This document shows positions 3,374 through 61,338 of a stretch of 64,000 nucleotides of DNA, piece after piece. The position numbers and the translations under genes are program-made. Source of the DNA: a bacterium. Its GTDB lineage: Bacteria > Patescibacteriota > Andersenbacteria > UBA10190 > CAIZMI01. The stretch lies in the NCBI GenBank assembly GCA_030647555.1, contig JAUSJG010000013.1, positions 12,086 through 76,085 on the forward strand, given 5' to 3'. The notes beneath the pieces were generated by a model. It saw nothing but the letters and a program-made list of their open reading frames with translations. It had not been told where the DNA came from and ran no database searches. Positions within the stretch are counted from its first letter, which is position 1. Each line of letters starts with the position of its first letter.

Positions 3374-3405
3374 GAACTGGTCGTTCTGAAAATAAAGTTA
3401 GCGAA

Positions 3406-3444
3406 ATCAGTGACCGACCCCGGCGTGCGGGGACGGTCCCTGAT
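3406..3444. repeat. Palindromic element family 2 (GACCGTCCC type): atcagtgaccgaccccggcgtgcggggacggtccctgat
   Basis: Identical copy at 7389-7427; related copies 21361-21398, 38601-38639, 48678-48715, 59907-59944. Confidence 0.75.
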
Positions 3445-3550
3445 TTGTCGGATGCACCATTGACTTTTGTCTGTTTTGGGGGTAGGTTGGACGTAAGAAG
3501 CAACCGAAAACTTCCTGAAAGGGTTGTGGCCGAAAGGTCTAGGTTGCTTT

Positions 3551-4852: not shown

Positions 4853-4878
4853 CCGCGTCATCGAGACGCGGTTTTTTT
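4853..4878 (+). terminator. Intrinsic terminator ccgcgtcatcgagacgcgg + T7
   Basis: Hairpin and T-run immediately after stop of 4255-4845. Confidence 0.55.
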
Positions 4879-4880
4879 AT

Positions 4881-4932
4881 TTTTCTCATCAGAGAAAAAT
4901 AATCCCCCATAGCTCATCAGCGCGCGCGGGTG
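4881..4932. repeat. Variable palindrome (ttttctcatcagagaaaa) + degenerate 34-bp CAT element (aatcccccatagctcatcag...)
   Basis: Same architecture as 7322-7374, 28296-28351, 38001-38056, 48569-48623. Confidence 0.55.
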
Positions 4933-5006
4933 TTTATTAGGAGTCTCCATAAAAGGAAACACCCAATAAACACGAATCGTTCCCACGTGGGTGACGAAAA
5001 ATTTAT

Positions 5007-5702: not shown

Positions 5703-5727
5703 ATTCGAGAAATTTGTACGCGCAATT

Positions 5728-5945
5728 TGTATCGATATGTCGATACAAAAGAACACTGATTGTTTGTTTTTACTGATTTTTAAAAATCCAACCTTGCTCT
5801 TGTATCGATATATCGATACACAAACAGGCAAAGGCGATATATTTTTTTGCGTTAATTAAATCATGTTGCGCCTGTATCGATATATCGATACACAGATGTT
5901 TGTATTGTTGTAAACGAGTTGCTCTTGTATCGATATGTCGATACA
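5728..5945. promoter_or_regulatory. Four copies of 20-bp palindrome TGTATCGAYATRTCGATACA (5728-5747, 5801-5820, 5873-5892, 5926-5945), each in a promoter-like context (ttgcNc-palindrome-tacaNN)
   Basis: Exact palindromes seen directly; last copy abuts start codon of the TrpR-like gene. Confidence 0.6.
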
Positions 5946-5953
5946 ATTGAGGC

Positions 5954-6364
5954 ATGGCAAAAGTAAAAACGCAAAAATTTACAGCGGAAGAAAAAGAAAA
6001 GTTTGTGAAAAATCTTGGTGCGACAATTCTGAAATATGATAAACCAGATAAAATGGAAAAGTTTTTGCGTGATTTTCTTACGCCAAGTGAAATTATTATG
6101 TTGGCAAGAAGAATCCAAATTGCCGATGGCCTTATAAAAGGAAAAGGGTACCGCGAATTGCACGAAAAATACGGGATTGGAATGAGTACAGTTCAGCTGG
6201 TTGATAAGTGGTTGAGGGTGACAGTTGAAGATTACAAATACGCGCCACCTGGAAAACGCGACAAGAAGCAGAAGAAAACACGTGGCTATTCAAGACGTAG
6301 CGGTATCCAGCTTTTTCTTTCTTATTCAACTGGTCCCAATCCGTATTTTATTTGGCAAAGCTAA
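5954..6364 (+). CDS. TrpR-like YerC/YecD family DNA-binding protein
   Basis: EIIMLARRIQIADGLIKGKGYRELHEKYGIGMSTVQLV matches TrpR_YerC/YecD HTH region. Confidence 0.7.
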   Translation: MAKVKTQKFTAEEKEKFVKNLGATILKYDKPDKMEKFLRDFLTPSEIIMLARRIQIADGLIKGKGYRELHEKYGIGMSTVQLVDKWLRVTVEDYKYAPPGKRDKKQKKTRGYSRRSGIQLFLSYSTGPNPYFIWQS

Positions 6365-6366
6365 TT

Positions 6367-6432
6367 TGTATCGACATATCGATACAAGTCACCGTGTTGG
6401 TTGATATTTTTATGTATCGACATATCGATACA
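6367..6432. promoter_or_regulatory. Two more copies of TGTATCGACATATCGATACA (6367-6386, 6413-6432) downstream of TrpR-like gene
   Basis: Exact palindromes seen directly. Confidence 0.6.
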
Positions 6433-6477
6433 TCATTGCGTGATGCGGTTGAGTGAATTTTTTTAAACTAAAACTTG

Positions 6478-7295: not shown

Positions 7296-7322
7296 CTCCA
7301 CGGAATCCCGTGGAGTTTTTTT
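7296..7322 (+). terminator. Intrinsic terminator ctccacggaatcccgtggag + T7
   Basis: Hairpin and T-run after stop. Confidence 0.55.
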
Positions 7323-7374
7323 GTTTTCGCGCGCTCGCGAAAACAATCCCCCATAGTCTTGGTGAAGGGGGATG
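7322..7374. repeat. Variable palindrome gttttcgcgcgctcgcgaaaac + CAT-element variant aatcccccatagtcttggtgaagggggatg
   Basis: Architecture shared with four other sites. Confidence 0.55.
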
Positions 7375-7388
7375 ATTTATTTTTTTAA

Positions 7389-7427
7389 ATCAGTGACCGA
7401 CCCCGGCGTGCGGGGACGGTCCCTGAT
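7389..7427. repeat. Palindromic element family 2, identical to 3406-3444
   Basis: Exact repeat. Confidence 0.75.
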
Positions 7428-7473
7428 TTGTTCGCGTATTCCTATTTCATCAATCATCATTCATAATCACCTT

Positions 7474-20409: not shown

Positions 20410-20540
20410 CAAAAATCCCAATGACCAAACCCCAATGTCCAACAAAAACCCAATTATCAAAATTCCAAAGTTGCGATTTTTTTTGGTTATTAAAATTTTT
20501 GAATTTTGTTGGGCATTGGTCATTGGGGTTTGGGATTTTG
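20410..20540. repeat. Long hairpin element (tcccaatgaccaaaccccaatgtccaacaaaa ... ttttgttgggcattggtcattggggtttggga); family copies 24997-25125, 32453-32605, 53893-54027, 57531-57660
   Basis: Inverted arms ~32 bp; same arm sequence after rpoC, ftsK, ychF, uvrC, uvrA. Confidence 0.65.
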
Positions 20541-22402: not shown

Positions 22403-22587
22403 GTAACCGCTCACAGGTCGAGGAAAAGACGCGTCAGTTACCTTCAAGGTGGAGCACGCTTGCTCTTCCTTGAAGGTGGTATAGGTTAGCGTTGACGACG
22501 AACCAATACCACTTCCGATGAAGTGCCTCGGCACCACATCGGAAGTGGGAGCGATGATCTTTTTTTCCTTAACCTGTGAGCGGTTAC
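22403..22587. mobile_element. Structured TIR-bounded element, copy 1 (185 bp): 25-bp terminal inverted repeats gtaaccgctcacaggtcgaggaaaa / ttttccttaacctgtgagcggttac, two internal hairpins; flanked by caagaa direct repeat
   Basis: Direct comparison with 34615-34877 and 58081-58280. Confidence 0.7.
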
Positions 22588-24996: not shown

Positions 24997-25125
24997 TGGT
25001 TATTAAACCCCAAATCCCAATGACCAATGTCCAACAAAACCATAATTACTAAAATCCCAAAACGCGTATTTGGTCATTAGTATTTTGGAATTTTGTTGGA
25101 CATTGGGGTTTGGGATTTGGGGTTT
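24997..25125. repeat. cccaatgaccaa-family long hairpin after ftsK
   Basis: Arm sequence shared with 20410-20540. Confidence 0.6.
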
Positions 25126-28259: not shown

Positions 28260-28295
28260 TCCCCGGGTCCAGCAATGGATCCCGGGGATTTTTTT
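28260..28295 (+). terminator. Intrinsic terminator tccccgggtccagcaatggatcccgggga + T7
   Basis: Hairpin and T-run. Confidence 0.6.
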
Positions 28296-28351
28296 GTTGC
28301 CCATCGCAATGGACAACAATCCCCCATAGCTCATCAGAGCGACGGGGGATG
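28296..28351. repeat. Variable palindrome gttgcccatcgcaatggacaac + canonical 34-bp CAT element aatcccccatagctcatcagagcgacgggggatg
   Basis: CAT element identical to 38023-38056. Confidence 0.65.
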
Positions 28352-28519
28352 TGTCAATTAACAAAGCTTTAGCGAAGTGGGGGGTGTTTTCTGAAATTTA
28401 GTACATTTTTTTCATGCGATTGTCGTTTCAGTTTTTCTATAACAAGATAGAAAAACTGAAACGAGTAGGTGTAAAGAAGTTTTAAAATATATTAGGGATT
28501 CTCCTGATTGGAAGTTGTA

Positions 28520-32452: not shown

Positions 32453-32605
32453 AAATCCCAATGACCAAACCCCAATGTCCAACAAAACTTCAAAATCTTA
32501 ATGACCAAAATGACACTTCTTTGGGATTTTAGAAATTAGAATTTTGTTGCCTGCCGGCCGAAGCTTTAGCGAAGGCTGGGTCATTGGGATTTGGAGTTTG
32601 GAGTT
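32453..32605. repeat. cccaatgaccaa-family long hairpin with nested ~30-bp insertion (ctgccggccgaagctttagcgaaggctggg)
   Basis: Arm sequence shared; aagctttagcgaag also at 28366-28379. Confidence 0.55.
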
Positions 32606-34614: not shown

Positions 34615-34877
34615 GTAACCGCTCACCGGTTAAGGAGAAATTTGAGTCGTCGCTCTCACTTCCGATGTGGTGCCGACCTGTCCCCCATAGCCTTGGCAAC
34701 GGGGGAGGCACTTCATCGGAAGTGGTGTGGGTTAGGGTTTGATAATCGTAGTAACGTTACGCGAACCATAACCACTTCCAAGGAAGCCATGCCTGTCCTC
34801 CGTAGCCTTGTGCGAAGGGGGAAATGGCCACCTTGGAAGTGATCACGACAGCAATCCATCGACCGGTGAGCGGTTAC
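34615..34877. mobile_element. Structured TIR-bounded element, copy 2 (263 bp), inverted relative to copies 1/3 and carrying two nested ~30-bp mini-palindromes in its hairpin loops
   Basis: TIRs gtaaccgctcaccggttaagg / ccggtgagcggttac; internal cacttccgatg...catcggaagtg hairpin. Confidence 0.65.
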
Positions 34878-37964: not shown

Positions 37965-38000
37965 CCGTTGAATCTCACCCGAGGTTCAACGGTTTTTTTT
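37965..38000 (+). terminator. Intrinsic terminator ccgttgaatctcacccgaggttcaacgg + T8
   Basis: Hairpin and T-run. Confidence 0.6.
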
Positions 38001-38056
38001 GATTTTCTTCGCGAAGAAAATCAATCCCCCATAGCTCATCAGAGCGACGGGGGATG
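38001..38056. repeat. Variable palindrome gattttcttcgcgaagaaaatc + canonical 34-bp CAT element
   Basis: Identical CAT element to 28318-28351. Confidence 0.65.
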
Positions 38057-38145
38057 TTTCTTCATCAATCAGCGTCATGTACCCTACGTCACAACCCTTG
38101 TAATTGTCGTCTGGTAGTGTTACATTATTAAGAAGGAAAGACTAT

Positions 38146-38592: not shown

Positions 38593-38600
38593 AAAGTTTT

Positions 38601-38639
38601 ATCAGGGACCGTCCCCGGCGTGCGGGCACGGTCCCAGAT
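38601..38639. repeat. Palindromic element family 2 (atcagggaccgtccccggcgtgcgggcacggtcccagat)
   Basis: Related to 3406-3444. Confidence 0.65.
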
Positions 38640-38778
38640 AAAACCTTGATTTTGTGTTGCTTTAGTGCTATCTTTAATTAGTTGCTAGAAATGTTTTTTG
38701 GTATTAGAAAAGGAGACGATCTATAAATCAAAGGAGTGCCTGAAGTGATGGAATGTTTCAGAAGTAATTTCAAAAGGG

Positions 38779-46970: not shown

Positions 46971-47012
46971 CCGATCACGGAACGGAGCAACCTTGCTCCG
47001 TTCCGTGATCGG
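46971..47012. repeat. Palindromic element family 1 (ccgatcacggaacggagcaa-cc-ttgctccgttccgtgatcgg); supplies the last ~12 codons and stop of the HepT gene
   Basis: Overlap of palindrome with 3' end of ORF 46975-47439. Confidence 0.65.
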
Positions 47013-47439
47013 TGTTGGTCGCCACTACCTTGCTGATTATTTGCACGAATTGTTCAAGATCTCCCAAATTGTTTTGGAGGTTTTCGTATACTATTTCCGG
47101 ATCAACGTCCAAATAATCGTGGACCAAGACATTGCGGAAACTTTTCGCTTTTGTCAGTTTGACAGCGAGTTCTTCGGACAAGATTCCCGAGTTTGCCAAT
47201 ATTTCAAATTCACTATTTTTTTCGCCGGGCTTTTGTAATTTGTTTTCAATTATTAAATAACGCGCGATATCAACAACGGTCTCCAGTCCTGTTTGGAACA
47301 GGCGTTCCACCGAAAGTTCGTTGCGTTCATCGGCAAAGTATTCGTTTTTCGACAGCGCTTGGTATTTTTTCAGCTTTTCCAGTGTTTCTTCCAGCGAGGA
47401 TAATTTATTGACGACTATTTCTTTAGTTATTTCAGTCAT
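46975..47439 (-). CDS. HepT-like HEPN (DUF86) toxin; C-terminus read through a palindromic element
   Basis: RNVLVHDYLDVDPEIVY Rx4HxY motif. Confidence 0.7.
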   Translation of the reverse strand: MTEITKEIVVNKLSSLEETLEKLKKYQALSKNEYFADERNELSVERLFQTGLETVVDIARYLIIENKLQKPGEKNSEFEILANSGILSEELAVKLTKAKSFRNVLVHDYLDVDPEIVYENLQNNLGDLEQFVQIISKVVATNTDHGTEQGCSVP

Positions 47440-48540: not shown

Positions 48541-48770
48541 CGCGACCACCTCGGTCGCGATTTTTTTATTGCCCATCGGAATGGGCAATAATCCCCCTTA
48601 GCTCATCAGAGCGACGGGGGATGTTGCCTTGTTTTGTATCGATTATATCGATACAAACGGAAGATTGCTTACACGAAATCGGTGACCGACCCTGACCGCA
48701 GGGACGGTCCCCGATTAACTTCTCAAATCCTTATACTATATACCAAATACCATATACAAATCTAAATACA
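48541..48770. repeat. Repeat nest: terminator repeat (48541-48567), palindrome attgcccatcggaatgggcaat + CAT element (48569-48623), TGTATCGATTATATCGATACA (48635-48655), family-2 palindrome (48678-48715), gtatat-family fragment (48721-48770)
   Basis: Five different repeat families juxtaposed within 230 bp. Confidence 0.65.
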
Positions 48771-54668: not shown

Positions 54669-57530
54669 ATGGCAAATGTTATCACCATCCGCGGGGCGCG
54701 CGTTCATAACTTAAAAAACGTCGATGTAACCATTCCACGCGACAAGCTGGTGGTTATCACCGGACTCTCGGGTTCCGGTAAATCTTCTCTCGCTTTTGAT
54801 ACACTTTACGCGGAAGGGCAACGTCGTTATGTTGAATCGCTTTCCGCTTACGCTCGGCAGTTCTTGGGTTTGATGGACAAACCGGACGCCGACCAAATTG
54901 ACGGGCTAAGTCCGGCAATTTCCATCGATCAAAAATCCGGGACACGCAATCCGCGTTCTACGGTAGGTACTGTTACAGAAATTTACGATTATCTTCGTTT
55001 GCTTTTTGCCAGAACCGGTGTCCCGCATTGTCCGCAGTGTGGAAAGATGATTCGTCGTCAAACAATCAAGGAAATTACCGATCAGATTTTGAATTTGCCG
55101 GACGGCTCAAACATTATGGTGTTGGCGCCCAAGATTCGCGACCGCAAAGGTGAGCACAAACAAATTTTCAAAGAAATTGAACAGCAGGGTTATGTGCGCG
55201 CTCGTGTCGACGGCTCGGTTTATGATTTGCAAGAAGCGCAACAATTGGAATTGGATAAACAAAAAAAGCATTCTATTGAGGTTGTGATCGATCGCTTGTT
55301 AATTGATAAGCGCAACTTGGATCGTCCGCGCATTGCCGACTCGGTAGAAACAGCAACCCGTATTGGTGGGGGCATTGTGATCATCGAAGATCGCACCGCG
55401 AAAAAAGATTTTGTTTATTCTGAACAATTTGCTTGTTCGGATTGTGGGATCAGTTTGACCGAAGTGGAACCAAGAATGTTTTCGTTTAATAGTCCGCACG
55501 GCGCGTGTCCGGCTTGTACCGGTCTTGGTACGCAATTGGAAGTAAACGAAGAACTTGTAATTCCTAATCGCAAATTAACTTTGGCCGAAGGCGCCATTAA
55601 ACCGTGGAGTCGCCGGATGCGTGGCAGTTCATGGGCGATGTGGATTTTGGAAGCAGTGGCTAAAAGAAACCATTTTTCGTTGGATGTGCCGGTTAGTAAG
55701 TTATCGGAAGAAGTAATGGAAATTATTATGTTTGGTATGGGTGACGAAAAAATCACTGTGAAAACCGAAGAGGGTACGACGATGGAAACAAAATTTGAAG
55801 GTGTGGTTCCCAATTTGATGCGTCGCTACAAAGAAACGGATTCGGATTATGCCAGAAGCGAAATCGAGCGTTATATGGTGAGCAAGCCCTGTCCGGTTTG
55901 CAAAGGGAAGCGTCTTAAGCCGGAATCATTAAGCGTTTTCTTGGCCGGAAAAAATATGCACGAAGTTGTGTCATTAACTATCGCTGATAACTACAAACTC
56001 TTTTCTGATCTCGCGCAAAACCCGAAATCACACGAAACTTTTGGTCCACGTGAGCAAATTATCGGCAAGCAGGTATTACTGGAAATTCGTGCTCGCTTGA
56101 AGTTTTTACTCGACGTCGGTTTGGATTATCTGACTTTAGATCGTTCGGCCGCCACATTGGCCGGCGGTGAAGCGCAACGGATTCGTTTAGCCACACAAAT
56201 TGGTTCCGGTCTCGTTGGGGTGCTTTATATTTTGGACGAACCGTCAATTGGTTTGCATCAACGCGATAATTCGCGCTTGATTGGCACATTGAAAACTTTG
56301 CGTGATTTGGGTAACTCGGTAATTGTTGTGGAACACGACGAAGAGATGATTCGTAATGCGGATTATGTGATTGATGTCGGGCCGGGCGCCGGTGAACACG
56401 GCGGGCAAATTGTTTTCGCGGGAACGGCGAAAGCATTGGAAAAATCCAACACGCTTACCGGCAAATATCTCGCCGGAAAAATGGAAATTCCTGTGCCGAA
56501 GAAAAAGCGCGCCGGAAATGGAAAGACATTGGTCATCAAAGGCGCGACCGAACACAATTTACAAAACGTCGATGTAAAAATTCCGTTGGGTAAATTTGTT
56601 TGCGTGTCCGGTGTTTCCGGTTCCGGAAAATCGACATTGATTAACGATATTCTCTCGAAGGTCTTGGCCAAAGAATTCTACGGGGCCAAAGATTTGCCGG
56701 GTAAACACGATAGTGTTCAAGGTCTGCAAAATCTCGACAAAGTAATTATGATTGATCAATCGGCAATTGGTCGCACCCCACGCAGTAATCCTGCCACATA
56801 TACCGGCGTCTTTACCGCGATTCGCGAATTGTTTTCGGCCACTCCGGAAGCAAAAGTGCGCGGTTATGATGCCGGACGTTTTTCTTTCAATGTACGTGGT
56901 GGTCGTTGTGAAACCTGTCAGGGTGACGGAGTGATTCGGATTGAAATGCAATTTTTACCGGACGTTTACGTGGAGTGCGAAGAGTGTCACGGTAAACGTT
57001 ACAATCGCGAAGCGTTGGATATTCTTTATAAAGGAACAACGATTGCGGAAATTTTGAATATGACGGTGGAACGGGCGCACGAATTTTTCCGTGCTATTCC
57101 GGCGATTGAATCGAAATTGGCCGTGCTTGAACAAGTTGGTCTTGGCTATGTCCACTTGGGTCAACCGGCGACGCAACTTTCCGGTGGTGAAGCACAGCGC
57201 ATTAAATTGGCCACAGAACTTTCCCGTCGCGCCACCGGTAAAACAATTTATATTTTGGATGAACCGACAACGGGTTTGCATTTCGATGATGTCCGTAAAT
57301 TGTTAACTGTTTTGCATGCGTTGGTCGACAAAGGTAATTCTGTTTTAGTCATCGAACACAATCTCGATGTTCTTAAAGCGGCCGATTGGATTATTGATTT
57401 GGGCCCGGAAGGTGGAAACAAAGGCGGAGAAATTATCGCCGAAGGTACGCCGGAAGAAGTATCACGCGTGGCGAAGAGTTACACAGGGCAGTATTTGAAG
57501 GGGATGCTGGGGAAGAAAAAGACAAAATAA
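54669..57530 (+). CDS. uvrA: Excinuclease ABC subunit A (UvrA)
   Basis: Two ABC ATPase modules ([14 protein letters not shown]; [13 protein letters not shown]), zinc fingers. Confidence 0.97.
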
Positions 57531-57660
57531 ATCCCAATTTCCAAATCCCAAAACCCAACAAAATCCCAAAATCATAATGACCAAAACGGTTAGTCTTTGG
57601 AATTTAGGTGATTAGGATTTTGTTGGACATTGGTCATTGGGGTTTGGGTTTTATTACCAA
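57531..57660. repeat. cccaatgaccaa-family long hairpin after uvrA
   Basis: Arm similarity. Confidence 0.55.
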
Positions 57661-58080: not shown

Positions 58081-58280
58081 GTAATCGCTCACTGGTTAAG
58101 GAAAAAGCCGTCGCGGACACATCCAAGGTGGCCATTCATGGCTTCCTTGGATGTGGTGTAGGTTCGCGTAACGTCGTTACGACGCTACTAACCCACACCA
58201 CTTCCGATGAAGGCCAAGCGTGGCCCACATCGGAAGTGAGTGCGACGATTCAAATTTTTCCTCGACCTGTGAGCGGTTAC
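58081..58280. mobile_element. Structured TIR-bounded element, copy 3 (200 bp)
   Basis: TIRs gtaatcgctcactggttaaggaaaaa / tttttcctcgacctgtgagcggttac; internal hairpins with compensatory changes relative to copy 1. Confidence 0.7.
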
Positions 58281-58932: not shown

Positions 58933-59703
58933 ATGGCGAATCGTGACTTGTTCCGGGAAATCGTCGAGTCTTTGATTGTGCCGGCCAGCGAAGGTGTGGG
59001 TGACGCGGCTGAAAATCTGCTTCGGCTGTGCGCGAATGCGCGACCGGAAGCGGTTGAGGCGCTGGGCGACGTCGTTGAACTCGAAGTGCTGCTTTCGGCC
59101 ATCGAGGGCTACAAACAGCGCCAGGTTTTCGGAGGTTCAGGCGAAGCACAGGCTGAGATTCCGGAAGAGCTTGCCAGGGACGACGACGAGTTCATGAGCA
59201 CTCGGCAAGCGGCCCGGTTGTTGCGCGAAAAGGGACGGCCGAATTTCGCCACAACGGTTGGTCAACTGGAAGAACTGATCCACACCGACCAGGCGCGCGA
59301 GTTGGTTAATCTTCTGCACACGGTCGGTCAGATCCAAGAACTACAGATTCCCTGGGGACTGAAGTTCTCGAGCTACCTCAATGAGGCTGCGGAACGGATC
59401 GTTACCCGCTTGTTGCAACTTGTGGTCGAGTGGATGGAGGATGGCGCCAAACAGGACGCTTCCCGGCTGGCTCGCGATTTCGGTGAAGTCGGACTGGCGG
59501 CCGTCCAGCGGCTGATCAAGGCAGGTCGGCTCCCATTTCGGGTCGAAACCTATATGGGGCCGGATGCCCTGGATAGGGTTCGCTCGGCGGCCAATCAACC
59601 GATCGCGTTGCGCTGCGCTTTGCTCGGGGTGGAGTATCACGAGCGGAGTGTCAGTCGGTGCGAGAGCCCGCGTGCGGATCGTCGCGAGATGGCCCCCGCG
59701 TAG
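58933..59703 (+). CDS. Hypothetical protein, GC-rich (start MANRDLFREIV, RBS aaagga)
   Basis: ORF with RBS and terminator; atypical composition. Confidence 0.5.
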   Translation: MANRDLFREIVESLIVPASEGVGDAAENLLRLCANARPEAVEALGDVVELEVLLSAIEGYKQRQVFGGSGEAQAEIPEELARDDDEFMSTRQAARLLREKGRPNFATTVGQLEELIHTDQARELVNLLHTVGQIQELQIPWGLKFSSYLNEAAERIVTRLLQLVVEWMEDGAKQDASRLARDFGEVGLAAVQRLIKAGRLPFRVETYMGPDALDRVRSAANQPIALRCALLGVEYHERSVSRCESPRADRREMAPA

Positions 59704-59725
59704 GTTGGTCAAGTGGGGTAGAGTC

Positions 59726-59759
59726 ACGGGTGTTCACGCGAAGTGGCACCCGTTTTTTT
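59726..59759 (+). terminator. Intrinsic terminator cgggtgttcacgcgaagtggcacccg + T7
   Basis: Hairpin and T-run. Confidence 0.5.
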
Positions 59760-59780
59760 GTTCAAAAAATAGGGTACGCT

Positions 59781-60848
59781 ATGTGTGTGGAAACTAATAA
59801 TTTAAAAATCGAACAAGCGATTCTTGCCACGCTGGCCTACCACGATATTTTGAATATGCCGTTAACGGCGACCGAAATTTGGCGGTATTTGTTTAGAGAA
59901 CAACCAATCAGGGACCGACCCTGCATACAGGGACGGTCCCTGATTGGCGCATCGCTTACGGAAACAGAAAACATACTTAAGAATTTGTACAAATTTAATG
60001 AAATCGAATTTCATTCAGGCTACTACTATTTCCTCGAACGACAAGATTTAGTTGAAAAGCGTCTAAAAATGCACGCGTTGGCGCAAATTAAGTGGAAACG
60101 GTTGCGACGCATCGTTTGGTTTTTGCAGGCGATTCCTTTTTTGGAGATGGTGGCGGCGAGCGGCTCGCTTGCCCGCGAGTTTACGCATAAAGATAGTGAT
60201 CTGGATGTTTTGTTGGTTACAAAAGCGGGTAGGATTTGGACCGTGCGGTTTATTGTGACGGTAATTTTGGACTTGTTTCACTTGCGCCGGCGTCCGACAG
60301 GACCCACCCGTGACCTGGTTTGTTTGAATCATTATTTGGCACAGGACGGTTTAGCGCTTCCGTATCAAAGTTTATATACCGCTTTGGAGTATGCGCATAT
60401 CGTCCCACTCATTGGTGATAAAGTTTGTGCGGAATTTCGGGAAGCGAATAGAGAATGGATTGAGAAATATTTGGTACGTTTATTGCCCGATGAAATTGAT
60501 AATCTTAAACAAGTGCGAAAATCCTTTTTTCTTTCGGGGATTAAAAAAATAGTTGAGCTTTTGTTGTGCGGTATGGTTGGCGACGCACTAGAAGAGTGGT
60601 TAGGAAAAAGACAGAAAGAGAGAATTGTAAAAAACGAGGAAAATGCGACGGCGGGCGGTCGGATCGTGGCCAGTCCATTGCATTTGGAGTTTCATCCGCA
60701 CAGCAAAGAAGCGCCGTTGCTGAAAAAGTTTAATGAGAAAATGGCGGAAATGGGATTGGACGCGTTTGGTGGGCAAAAAGATTCCGGCTTGACAAAAAAT
60801 GCAAACGGATATATGATCCCGACATCCTCGGATGCCGACCCGCCGTAA
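59781..60848 (+). CDS. Nucleotidyltransferase-superfamily protein (Pol-beta-like GS...DSDLDVLLV) with N-terminal wHTH-like region; carries in-frame family-2 palindrome
   Basis: GSLAREFTHKDSDLDVLLV motif; start at MCVETNN. Confidence 0.5.
   Translation: MCVETNNLKIEQAILATLAYHDILNMPLTATEIWRYLFREQPIRDRPCIQGRSLIGASLTETENILKNLYKFNEIEFHSGYYYFLERQDLVEKRLKMHALAQIKWKRLRRIVWFLQAIPFLEMVAASGSLAREFTHKDSDLDVLLVTKAGRIWTVRFIVTVILDLFHLRRRPTGPTRDLVCLNHYLAQDGLALPYQSLYTALEYAHIVPLIGDKVCAEFREANREWIEKYLVRLLPDEIDNLKQVRKSFFLSGIKKIVELLLCGMVGDALEEWLGKRQKERIVKNEENATAGGRIVASPLHLEFHPHSKEAPLLKKFNEKMAEMGLDAFGGQKDSGLTKNANGYMIPTSSDADPP
59907..59944. repeat. Palindromic element family 2 inside ORF 59781-60848 (encodes QPIRDRPCIQGRSLIG)
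   Basis: atcagggaccgaccctgcatacagggacggtccctgat read directly in coding frame. Confidence 0.7.
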
Positions 60849-61061: not shown

Positions 61062-61132
61062 TAGGGCAAGTTTTTTGAGATCGTCGTAGGAAAGCGAACG
61101 GTCTGCTTTGCGTTTTCCTGTGACCTGCGTAC

Positions 61133-61207
61133 CGATCACGGAACGGAGCATCCCCCTTCGCACAAGGCTACGGCGGGACAAAGAGGTTGCTCCGTTCCGT
61201 GATCGGT
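61133..61207. repeat. Palindromic element family 1 with 36-bp insertion (tcccccttcgcacaaggctacggcgggacaaagagg) in its loop
   Basis: Arms identical to 46971-47012; insert also present (reverse) in 34794-34823. Confidence 0.65.
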
Positions 61208-61338
61208 TATTGGTTTCCCATATTGGTTTCCCATTGACACTAATTTGTCTCCTGCTACAATAAATCCATTGGCACTCTAATGACTTGAGTGCTAAAATGT
61301 TCAGAACTTATCTTATTCTTAATTTCAAGTTCAAAAAG

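Follow-up and report, generated by a model that had tools for sequence, protein, structure and literature searches.

The stretch of DNA analyzed here, referred to throughout as the window, is a 64-kb segment of a metagenome-assembled genome (MAG) from the Patescibacteria or candidate phyla radiation (CPR), and all coordinates given without a locus number are positions in it. It is chromosomal, encompassing rpoB, an unsplit rpoC, ftsK, recA, cfa, uvrABC and groEL, and the nearest named relatives of its RecA come from Andersenbacteria, Parcubacteria and Doudnabacteria at 70-75% identity. Our subject is a family of very small imperfect palindromes of 30-33 nt, termed here the mini-hairpin element or mini-insert, three members of which are lodged in this window. 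All three sit at the apexes of larger host hairpins, of which paralogous copies elsewhere in the window are empty.

The first host belongs to a palindrome family that we call family 1 (61132-61206, unstranded) and has 19-nt arms, CCGATCACGGAACGGAGCA and TGCTCCGTTCCGTGATCGG, at 61132-61150 and 61188-61206. The same arms are found again at 46971-46989 and 46994-47012, in an empty sister (46971-47012, likewise unstranded) that is a perfect 42-nt palindrome with a 2-nt centre. The reverse complement of this sister reads GGAGCA^AGGTTGCTCC, with the caret at the point of insertion, and the filled copy is the same sequence with exactly 33 nt added, namely the mini-hairpin element TCCCCCTTCGCACAAGGCTACGGCGGGACAAAG (61151-61183, + strand), which is followed by the host loop bases AGGT (61184-61187). 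The filled palindrome folds at -27.6 kcal/mol (z = -7). As to their genomic surroundings, the empty copy overlaps the last codons at the 3' end of an open reading frame (ORF) for a HepT-like toxin (46975-47439); the filled copy lies ~280 nt downstream of an ORF with a nucleotidyltransferase domain (59658-60848) and upstream of a CIRCE (controlling inverted repeat of chaperone expression) operator (61266-61296) and groEL.

A structured element, ~190 nt long without inserts, serves as the second host and has three copies in the window: copy 1 (22403-22587, + strand), copy 2 (34615-34877, inverted, on the - strand) and copy 3 (58081-58280, + strand). With the inserts removed, the three copies share a consensus fold in which a long outer stem encloses three internal hairpins; it contains 68 pairs, 6 of which show compensatory changes. 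Copy 2 bears two inserts, and both of their sites are apical loops of this consensus fold. The apex of its hairpin A holds a 31-nt copy of the mini-hairpin element, TCCCCCTTCGCACAAGGCTACGGAGGACAGG (34792-34822, - strand), where copy 3 has the empty apex GGCCATT^CATGGC (58130-58142). The apex of its hairpin B holds a 30-nt element, TCCCCCGTTGCCAAGGCTATGGGGGACAGG (34677-34706, - strand), where copy 1 has the empty apex GTGCC^TCGGCAC (22523-22534). Since its ends, architecture and ACAGG tail match those of the mini-insert, we assign this 30-nt element to a sister subfamily. The structured element itself matches no Rfam family and could be either a mobile repeat or a small RNA gene; copies 1 and 3 are directly upstream of TATAAT-type promoter-like sequences, with copy 3 then followed by TTGACA-N17-TATAAT.

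A first-pass annotation of this DNA had claimed that one mini-insert is common to two host palindromes, that the sister of the first host has a 2-nt loop, that copies 1 and 3 of the second lack the insert, and that these were discrete insertions into pre-existing hairpins. All four claims hold up: the 23-mer TCCCCCTTCGCACAAGGCTACGG has exactly two occurrences here (61151-61173, +; 34800-34822, -) against a shuffled expectation of 0; the sister is the 42-nt palindrome described above; both apexes are empty in copies 1 and 3; and the filled/empty pairs are clean. The insert as delimited there is real, though its coordinates were off by one base and the 36-nt version took in 3 host bases, and what had been read as a fragment like a second, "34-bp element" in copy 2 is instead the complete 30-nt insert of the sister subfamily. 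None of the three window inserts is accompanied by a target-site duplication, and these three filled/empty pairs support reading the insert as a mobile element. Apex junctions, taken for hairpin stems of at least 6 bp, make up only 2.2% of the window, and the chance that three of three inserts would fall at apexes is therefore ~1e-5, or, as a rough estimate, ~3e-4 if non-coding DNA alone is allowed.

The unit begins with one leading base (usually T), continues as CCCCC-TTCGC-ACAAG-GCTAC-G(N)GGGG and closes with a tail of AC plus AGG, AAG or AAAG, i.e. 4-6 nt reading ACAGG, ACAAG or ACAAAG, to give a total of 30-33 nt. It forms an imperfect hairpin in which a C5/G5 basal stem is followed by a 3x3 internal loop, then by a GC/GC step and, at the apex, by a loop of 4-5 nt. 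Read on the other strand, 5'-CCTGT CCCCC GTAGCC TTGTG CGAAG GGGGA, the internal loop becomes GTA/GAA, giving G.A, T:A and A.G pairs that are followed by two G:C pairs and a 5-nt loop, and this G.A-pair strand folds better than shuffled sequences (z = -3.3). On the same strand 4-5 conserved nucleotides, C(C/T)TGT or a variant thereof, adjoin the foot of the hairpin. In unrelated genomes the unit has the same ends to the base, and the tails that mark its subfamilies recur across phyla.

A search with a slightly degenerate 22-nt pattern, for which we estimate ~2 chance matches, recovered the core CCCCCTTCGCACAAGGCTACGG(N)GGGAC at 121 public loci (denoted by L numbers below), 58 of them in species-representative genomes and 63 on metagenome contigs; one or two (L065, L112) resemble chance matches. 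The near-identical core spans many phyla, among them Patescibacteria, Desulfobacterota, Bdellovibrionota and Planctomycetota, with further occurrences in Sedimentisphaerales, Verrucomicrobiae, Cloacimonadota and others. Copies were absent from 2.9 million viral contigs and from 72,556 plasmids, and Rfam searches at both gathering and permissive thresholds returned chance-level matches only. A literature search found the sequence string of the element in no published paper, and likewise nothing relevant on nested repetitive extragenic palindromic (REP) sequences or on palindromes of candidate phyla.

Many lineages of Patescibacteria carry the element. There a related mini-hairpin, CCCACTTCGC-TAAA-GCTTCGCGGGA, has a TAAA loop that either harbors a 33-nt copy or is empty, with empty versions present within the same loci. 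Two MAGs of Desulfohalobiaceae have 19 and 10 loci, in which the element is inside a longer host repeat represented by 29 filled and at least 12 empty copies; in some copies of this repeat (L010, L011, L040) the place of the mini-insert is taken by another small palindrome, TCACGCGCCCCGCGTGA. The neighbouring genes across loci are ordinary housekeeping genes, as is to be expected of a dispersed non-autonomous element, and the sole recurrent family related to mobility is IS91, where the element lies within the gene. At seven loci (L014, L033, L073, L080, L095, L102, L114) the element is flanked by the start of a small GIY-YIG gene (MHYVYIIRS...) on one side and by a tRNA gene on the other, a position kept in diverged organisms, with contigs binned as Victivallis and Methanoperedens that may reflect mis-binning. 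We rejected a link to the GIY-YIG nuclease because other copies have no GIY-YIG genes nearby.

Several copies reside within genes for RNAs and proteins. In the cultured bacterium Geomonas diazotrophica Red69 the element constitutes helix P3 of the RNase P RNA (310 bits; L029 1769-2161), and the apex of its P12, CCCUCCGAAGCCUUGGCGAAGGGGGG, is a second member of the family and a relative of the 30-nt insert of the window. The P3 and P12 subfamilies are the same two that occupy the hairpins of copy 2 of the structured element. In an unrelated groundwater organism, whose RNase P RNA is reduced, the element likewise supplies P3 (E = 1e-18; L093 3010-3328). A further locus (L108 860-1030) has two truncated 5' halves of tRNA-Ser, each ending past the CTTG of the anticodon loop and running into the element or a partial relative, with an intact tRNA-Ser downstream. 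Among proteins, in-frame copies add 11 residues to ArgRS and about 20 to UvrC; in the essential genes examined copies were present only at in-frame lengths, and hence selection filters insertions.

Copies are also present in transposase genes of the IS91 family (Zn_Tnp_IS91) from Bdellovibrionota and a "Proteobacteria" MAG, where 31-nt inserts break the frame at four sites (L027, L038, L043, L052, L056, L113) and removal of exactly 31 nt restores ORFs of 377-443 aa. Two of these insertion sites are common to gene copies that have diverged by 20-28% in DNA. In the comparison of L038 with L052 the proportion of synonymous differences (pS) is 0.58-0.60 and the ratio of nonsynonymous to synonymous divergence (dN/dS) is 0.07 upstream of the insert and 0.04 downstream (dS about 1.2), with the insert itself differing at 1 of 31 positions. 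This points either to repeated recent hits at the same sites or to an old, tolerated insert, and in the latter case the insert might be tolerated through recoding at the C5/G5 runs, through its removal at the RNA level or through frequent precise excision. Alignment of the ends of the IS91-like elements revealed no terminal hairpin matching the mini-insert.

For a broader view of landing sites, the copies were reduced to 64 contexts with unrelated flanks, and pairing of the flanks at -10 kcal/mol or lower was compared with a control of mismatched flanks that keeps flank composition. Tight pairing directly around the element is seen in 9 of the 64 contexts (14%) versus 2.5% in the control (p = 3e-5), examples being perfect palindromes split at the centre (L071) and insertions into the 4-nt loops of 8-bp stems (L076, L077). 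The nested mini-hairpins of Patescibacteria, the P3 helices of RNase P RNA and the tRNA-like anticodon arm are loop contexts that this flank test misses, and the actual proportion of structured targets must therefore exceed its estimate. The unpaired apexes of DNA hairpins, including the loops of the element's own relatives and hairpins of structured-RNA genes, are hit above chance. The element is found in coding sequence too, as in the IS91-family genes, ArgRS and UvrC, and the data support apex insertion as a preference rather than a rule. The loop targeting proposed in the first-pass annotation is thus upheld for the three window inserts and as an enrichment elsewhere; it does not extend to the majority of contexts, which are not strong hairpins, or to the coding copies, and the stronger idea that insertions always fall in loops gives way, across organisms, to enrichment only. 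Entry into DNA is precise, with neither a target duplication at any resolved site nor a fixed target sequence.

Given this picture, we put at about 50% the probability that the insert is a discrete, mobile but non-autonomous hairpin element of single-stranded DNA (ssDNA), 30-33 nt in length and akin to REPs and the small dispersed repeats (SDRs) of cyanobacteria, that favors unpaired apexes and may be moved by an HUH-type enzyme. Under such a mechanism the element would move as ssDNA, with an enzyme acting in trans that recognizes the hairpin and the conserved bases at its foot, and cuts and rejoins the element. Joining could then occur wherever ssDNA is exposed, so that extruded hairpin loops would be favored. 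The likeliest type of enzyme would be an HUH-type nuclease, either RAYT-like (REP-associated tyrosine transposase) or an IS91-like Y2 enzyme, and spread between phyla might come about by hitch-hiking on other mobile DNA. HUH enzymes of the Y1 type recognize imperfect hairpins together with a 4-nt sequence at the 5' foot, act on ssDNA and leave no duplication (PMC3479197). The lack of target duplication, the imperfect hairpin and the 4-5 conserved nucleotides by its foot all fit such chemistry, and on the G.A strand the conserved C(C/T)TGT beside the hairpin takes the position of the HUH 5'-foot sequence. HUH chemistry is the best match for a hairpin that enters single-stranded regions precisely and leaves no duplication, and an HUH enzyme is hence a plausible mover.

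A number of observations weigh against this reading. The mobilizing enzyme was not identified in the window or the fetched loci (~0.9 Mb). No transposase was found among the window ORFs scanned, and 7,113 ORFs of at least 50 aa from the window and 123 loci yielded no Y1 transposase in a jackhmmer search with the TnpA of IS608, a seed that was validated on PDB entry 2a6m and does not detect RAYT. The element is near-identical across phyla, whereas REP-like elements are normally species-specific, and its copy number is low, at 1-3 in most genomes. More than 80% of the 64 contexts have no strong hairpin, and the seven target sites resolved to the base have no tetranucleotide or other motif in common on either strand. 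Its orientation relative to local GC skew is 23:16 (p = 0.34), GC skew being a weak proxy on short contigs.

The foremost alternative, which we consider unlikely, is that insertion is random and that copies are seen in loops since the loops of selfish or structural palindromes offer some of the few sites that can take 31 more bases without harm. The presence of copies in coding sequence, the selective filter visible in ArgRS and UvrC and the majority of contexts that are not hairpins would all agree with this. Against it, neutral intergenic DNA is far commoner than apexes, yet all three window inserts are exactly at apexes; the enrichment for apexes persists over a control that keeps composition; and frameshifting copies endure in the IS91-family genes. 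A bolder variant of the mobile reading, to which we give somewhat less credence still, casts the ~31-nt hairpin as a cross-phylum genomic parasite, moved by a widespread or novel structure-specific activity that targets unpaired apexes and tolerated within genes by recoding or precise removal. If true, bacteria would have their own equivalent of the mitochondrial "byp" elements, and no smaller mobile element that spreads horizontally would be known.

We also deem it improbable that the element acts mainly at the level of RNA, as a stable hairpin module, its internal loop rich in purines, that is recruited into RNAs or tolerated in mRNAs by way of recoding or removal and whose spread reflects function as opposed to selfish mobility. 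Its role as P3, and that of its relative as the P12 apex, in a working RNase P RNA speak for this, as do the IS91-family ORFs, which remain under strong purifying selection past the frameshift (dN/dS 0.04) with 1 of 31 differences in the insert against a flanking pS of 0.59. Conversely, the element occurs in both orientations relative to genes, copies lie in the loops of DNA palindromes that do not appear to be transcribed and beside terminators, no Rfam family matches, and insertion is a DNA event whatever the later use of the sequence.

Less probable again is a process with no dedicated enzyme, wherein replication stalls at an apex and the nascent strand switches to another copy of the hairpin, copying ~31 nt and then switching back. 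Insertion at palindrome apexes, where forks stall, the lack of both target duplication and target motif, and the failure to find a transposase nearby speak for this. Such switching requires microhomology at the junctions, and none is seen; it is also at odds with unit ends constant to the base in unrelated genomes, with subfamily tails that recur across phyla and with insertions into coding DNA that forms no hairpin. Finally, we regard it as very unlikely that this is an ordinary palindrome-associated element of the IS200/IS605 type or a REP/RAYT member, for despite the imperfect hairpin, the conserved 5'-foot bases, the lack of duplication and a 5' arm, CCCCC-GTAGC, resembling the hairpin arm of IS608, it is a single hairpin of merely 30-33 nt with no conserved target tetranucleotide, no GTAG at the foot, a distribution neither species-specific nor purely extragenic, and no Y1 gene in the sequence examined.

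Other identities were rejected as well. A known RNA is disfavored by the chance-level Rfam matches, and a hammerhead ribozyme, suspected from CTGATGAG in the 34-bp element, found nothing in its support. The anatomy of the element, with single copies that lack R boxes and leave no duplication, led us to dismiss a CRISPR repeat, integron attC, dif/Xer site or off-target integration by Cas1-Cas2, and a miniature inverted-repeat transposable element, being derived from DDE transposases with terminal inverted repeats and a target-site duplication, is not consistent with resolved sites that have no duplication.

The nearest known entities to the preferred reading, that of a non-autonomous ssDNA hairpin element, are the cyanobacterial SDRs and the REP-like elements. 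The SDRs of heterocyst-forming cyanobacteria are 21-27 nt long and nested in other repeats. Like the present element they are very small mobile repeats (Elhai et al. 2008, Genome Res 18:1484, cited in PMC4390886 and PMC5861425) with precise insertion inside a palindrome, SDR5 splitting HIP1 exactly between its 3rd and 4th bases. SDRs are not known outside cyanobacteria, and none of the eight described SDR sequences is known to be related to the present one, whereas the host of the window is a Patescibacteria MAG with an unsplit rpoC and the element is 30-33 nt, itself a hairpin and near-identical across phyla. REPs and REPINs are similar in being imperfect palindromes of 20-40 nt that are non-autonomous and have conserved foot bases, with RAYT acting on ssDNA hairpins. 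They differ in having GTAG at the 5' foot, where the present element has it inside the stem; in being extragenic and species-specific with hundreds of copies, where it occurs in genes, in few copies and in many phyla; in flanking a single RAYT gene, where the scanned ORFs of the 64-kb window yielded no transposase; and in a mobile unit thought to be a doublet, where the present one is a single hairpin.

The IS200/IS605 elements likewise transpose as ssDNA without duplication by means of subterminal imperfect hairpins and a 4-nt guide at the 5' foot (PMC3479197). They need two hairpin ends and a fixed tetra- or pentanucleotide target and show a lagging-strand bias. The present insert consists of a single hairpin plus 1 nt at one end and 4-6 nt at the other, its resolved targets have no motif in common, and its orientation shows no detectable bias against local GC skew. 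For IS1397 the site of insertion is the palindrome's loop. Its insertion, and that of ISKpn1 and IS110-family elements, is directed into palindromic units, namely REPs, as represented by references 41 and 42 within PMC3116915. These are full insertion sequences with their own transposase that make target duplications, in which they differ from the mini-insert. Short palindromic inserts that persist in protein-coding genes, as the present element does, include the Rickettsia palindromic elements, which are 100-150 nt in length and, so far as is known, always in frame, and the byps of Magnusiomyces mitochondria, which are bypassed by ribosomes. The combination of cross-phylum identity, self-nesting and presence in both RNase P RNA and coding genes is, as far as we could find, undescribed.

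The window contains further relatives of the mini-insert outside of host apexes. A C5...G5 mini-hairpin at 7346-7373 (- strand; reverse complement ATCCCCCTTCACCAAGACTATGGGGGAT) adjoins a terminator and a unique palindrome and is not in any loop. The 34-bp element ATCCCCCATAGCTCATCAGAGCGACGGGGGAT is found at 28319-28350 (- strand), with further copies at 38024-38055 and 48591-48622 and a degenerate one at 4902-4932. Both have the basal stem and internal loop of the mini-insert with different apexes. A common layout is seen at five sites (4870-4935, 7316-7375, 28287-28352, 37992-38057 and 48559-48624), in which a gene stop is followed by a unique terminator hairpin, 7-8 T, a second near-perfect palindrome, different in sequence at each site, with 11-12-bp arms and a 4-nt loop, and then the C5...G5 mini-hairpin. 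The same layout is repeated on the metagenome contig L079 with the mini-insert core itself, and could reflect either a target preference near terminators or an inverted duplication made on insertion.

Other repeat families lie alongside these. An array of the palindrome TGTATCGATATATCGATACA (family D6; 5721-5947 and 6360-6434) has seven copies, the first five at a spacing of 53-73 nt, and the palindromic family AAATCAGTGACCGACCCCGGCGTGCGGGGACGGTCCCTGATTT, often near C5...G5 elements, is present at 3404-3448, 7387-7431, 38599-38643, 48676-48720 and 59904-59948. Long inverted repeats of heptamer-like units (CCCAATG, ACCAAAC and others) at 20413-20538, 25005-25125, 32453-32549 and 57529-57652 recall the cyanobacterial STRR (short tandemly repeated repetitive) sequences, though the genome is that of a Patescibacteria MAG. 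The host repeats are altogether absent from the syntenic loci of relatives (L124-L129; Cfa identity 82-90%), which leaves no orthologous empty sites for a direct comparison and indicates that the repeats expanded in this lineage.

The element offers an unusually clean system for studying the mobility of very short repeats, REPs and SDRs included, with a unit defined to the base, many filled/empty pairs, a measurable preference for apexes and a copy in a cultured bacterium, Geomonas diazotrophica. It has altered real genes, forming the P3 of RNase P RNA, adding residues to ArgRS and UvrC and interrupting IS91-family transposases, and the annotation of candidate-phyla genomes should allow for it. 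Its near-identity across phyla points either to frequent exchange of DNA among uncultivated lineages or to a mobilizing activity that they share.
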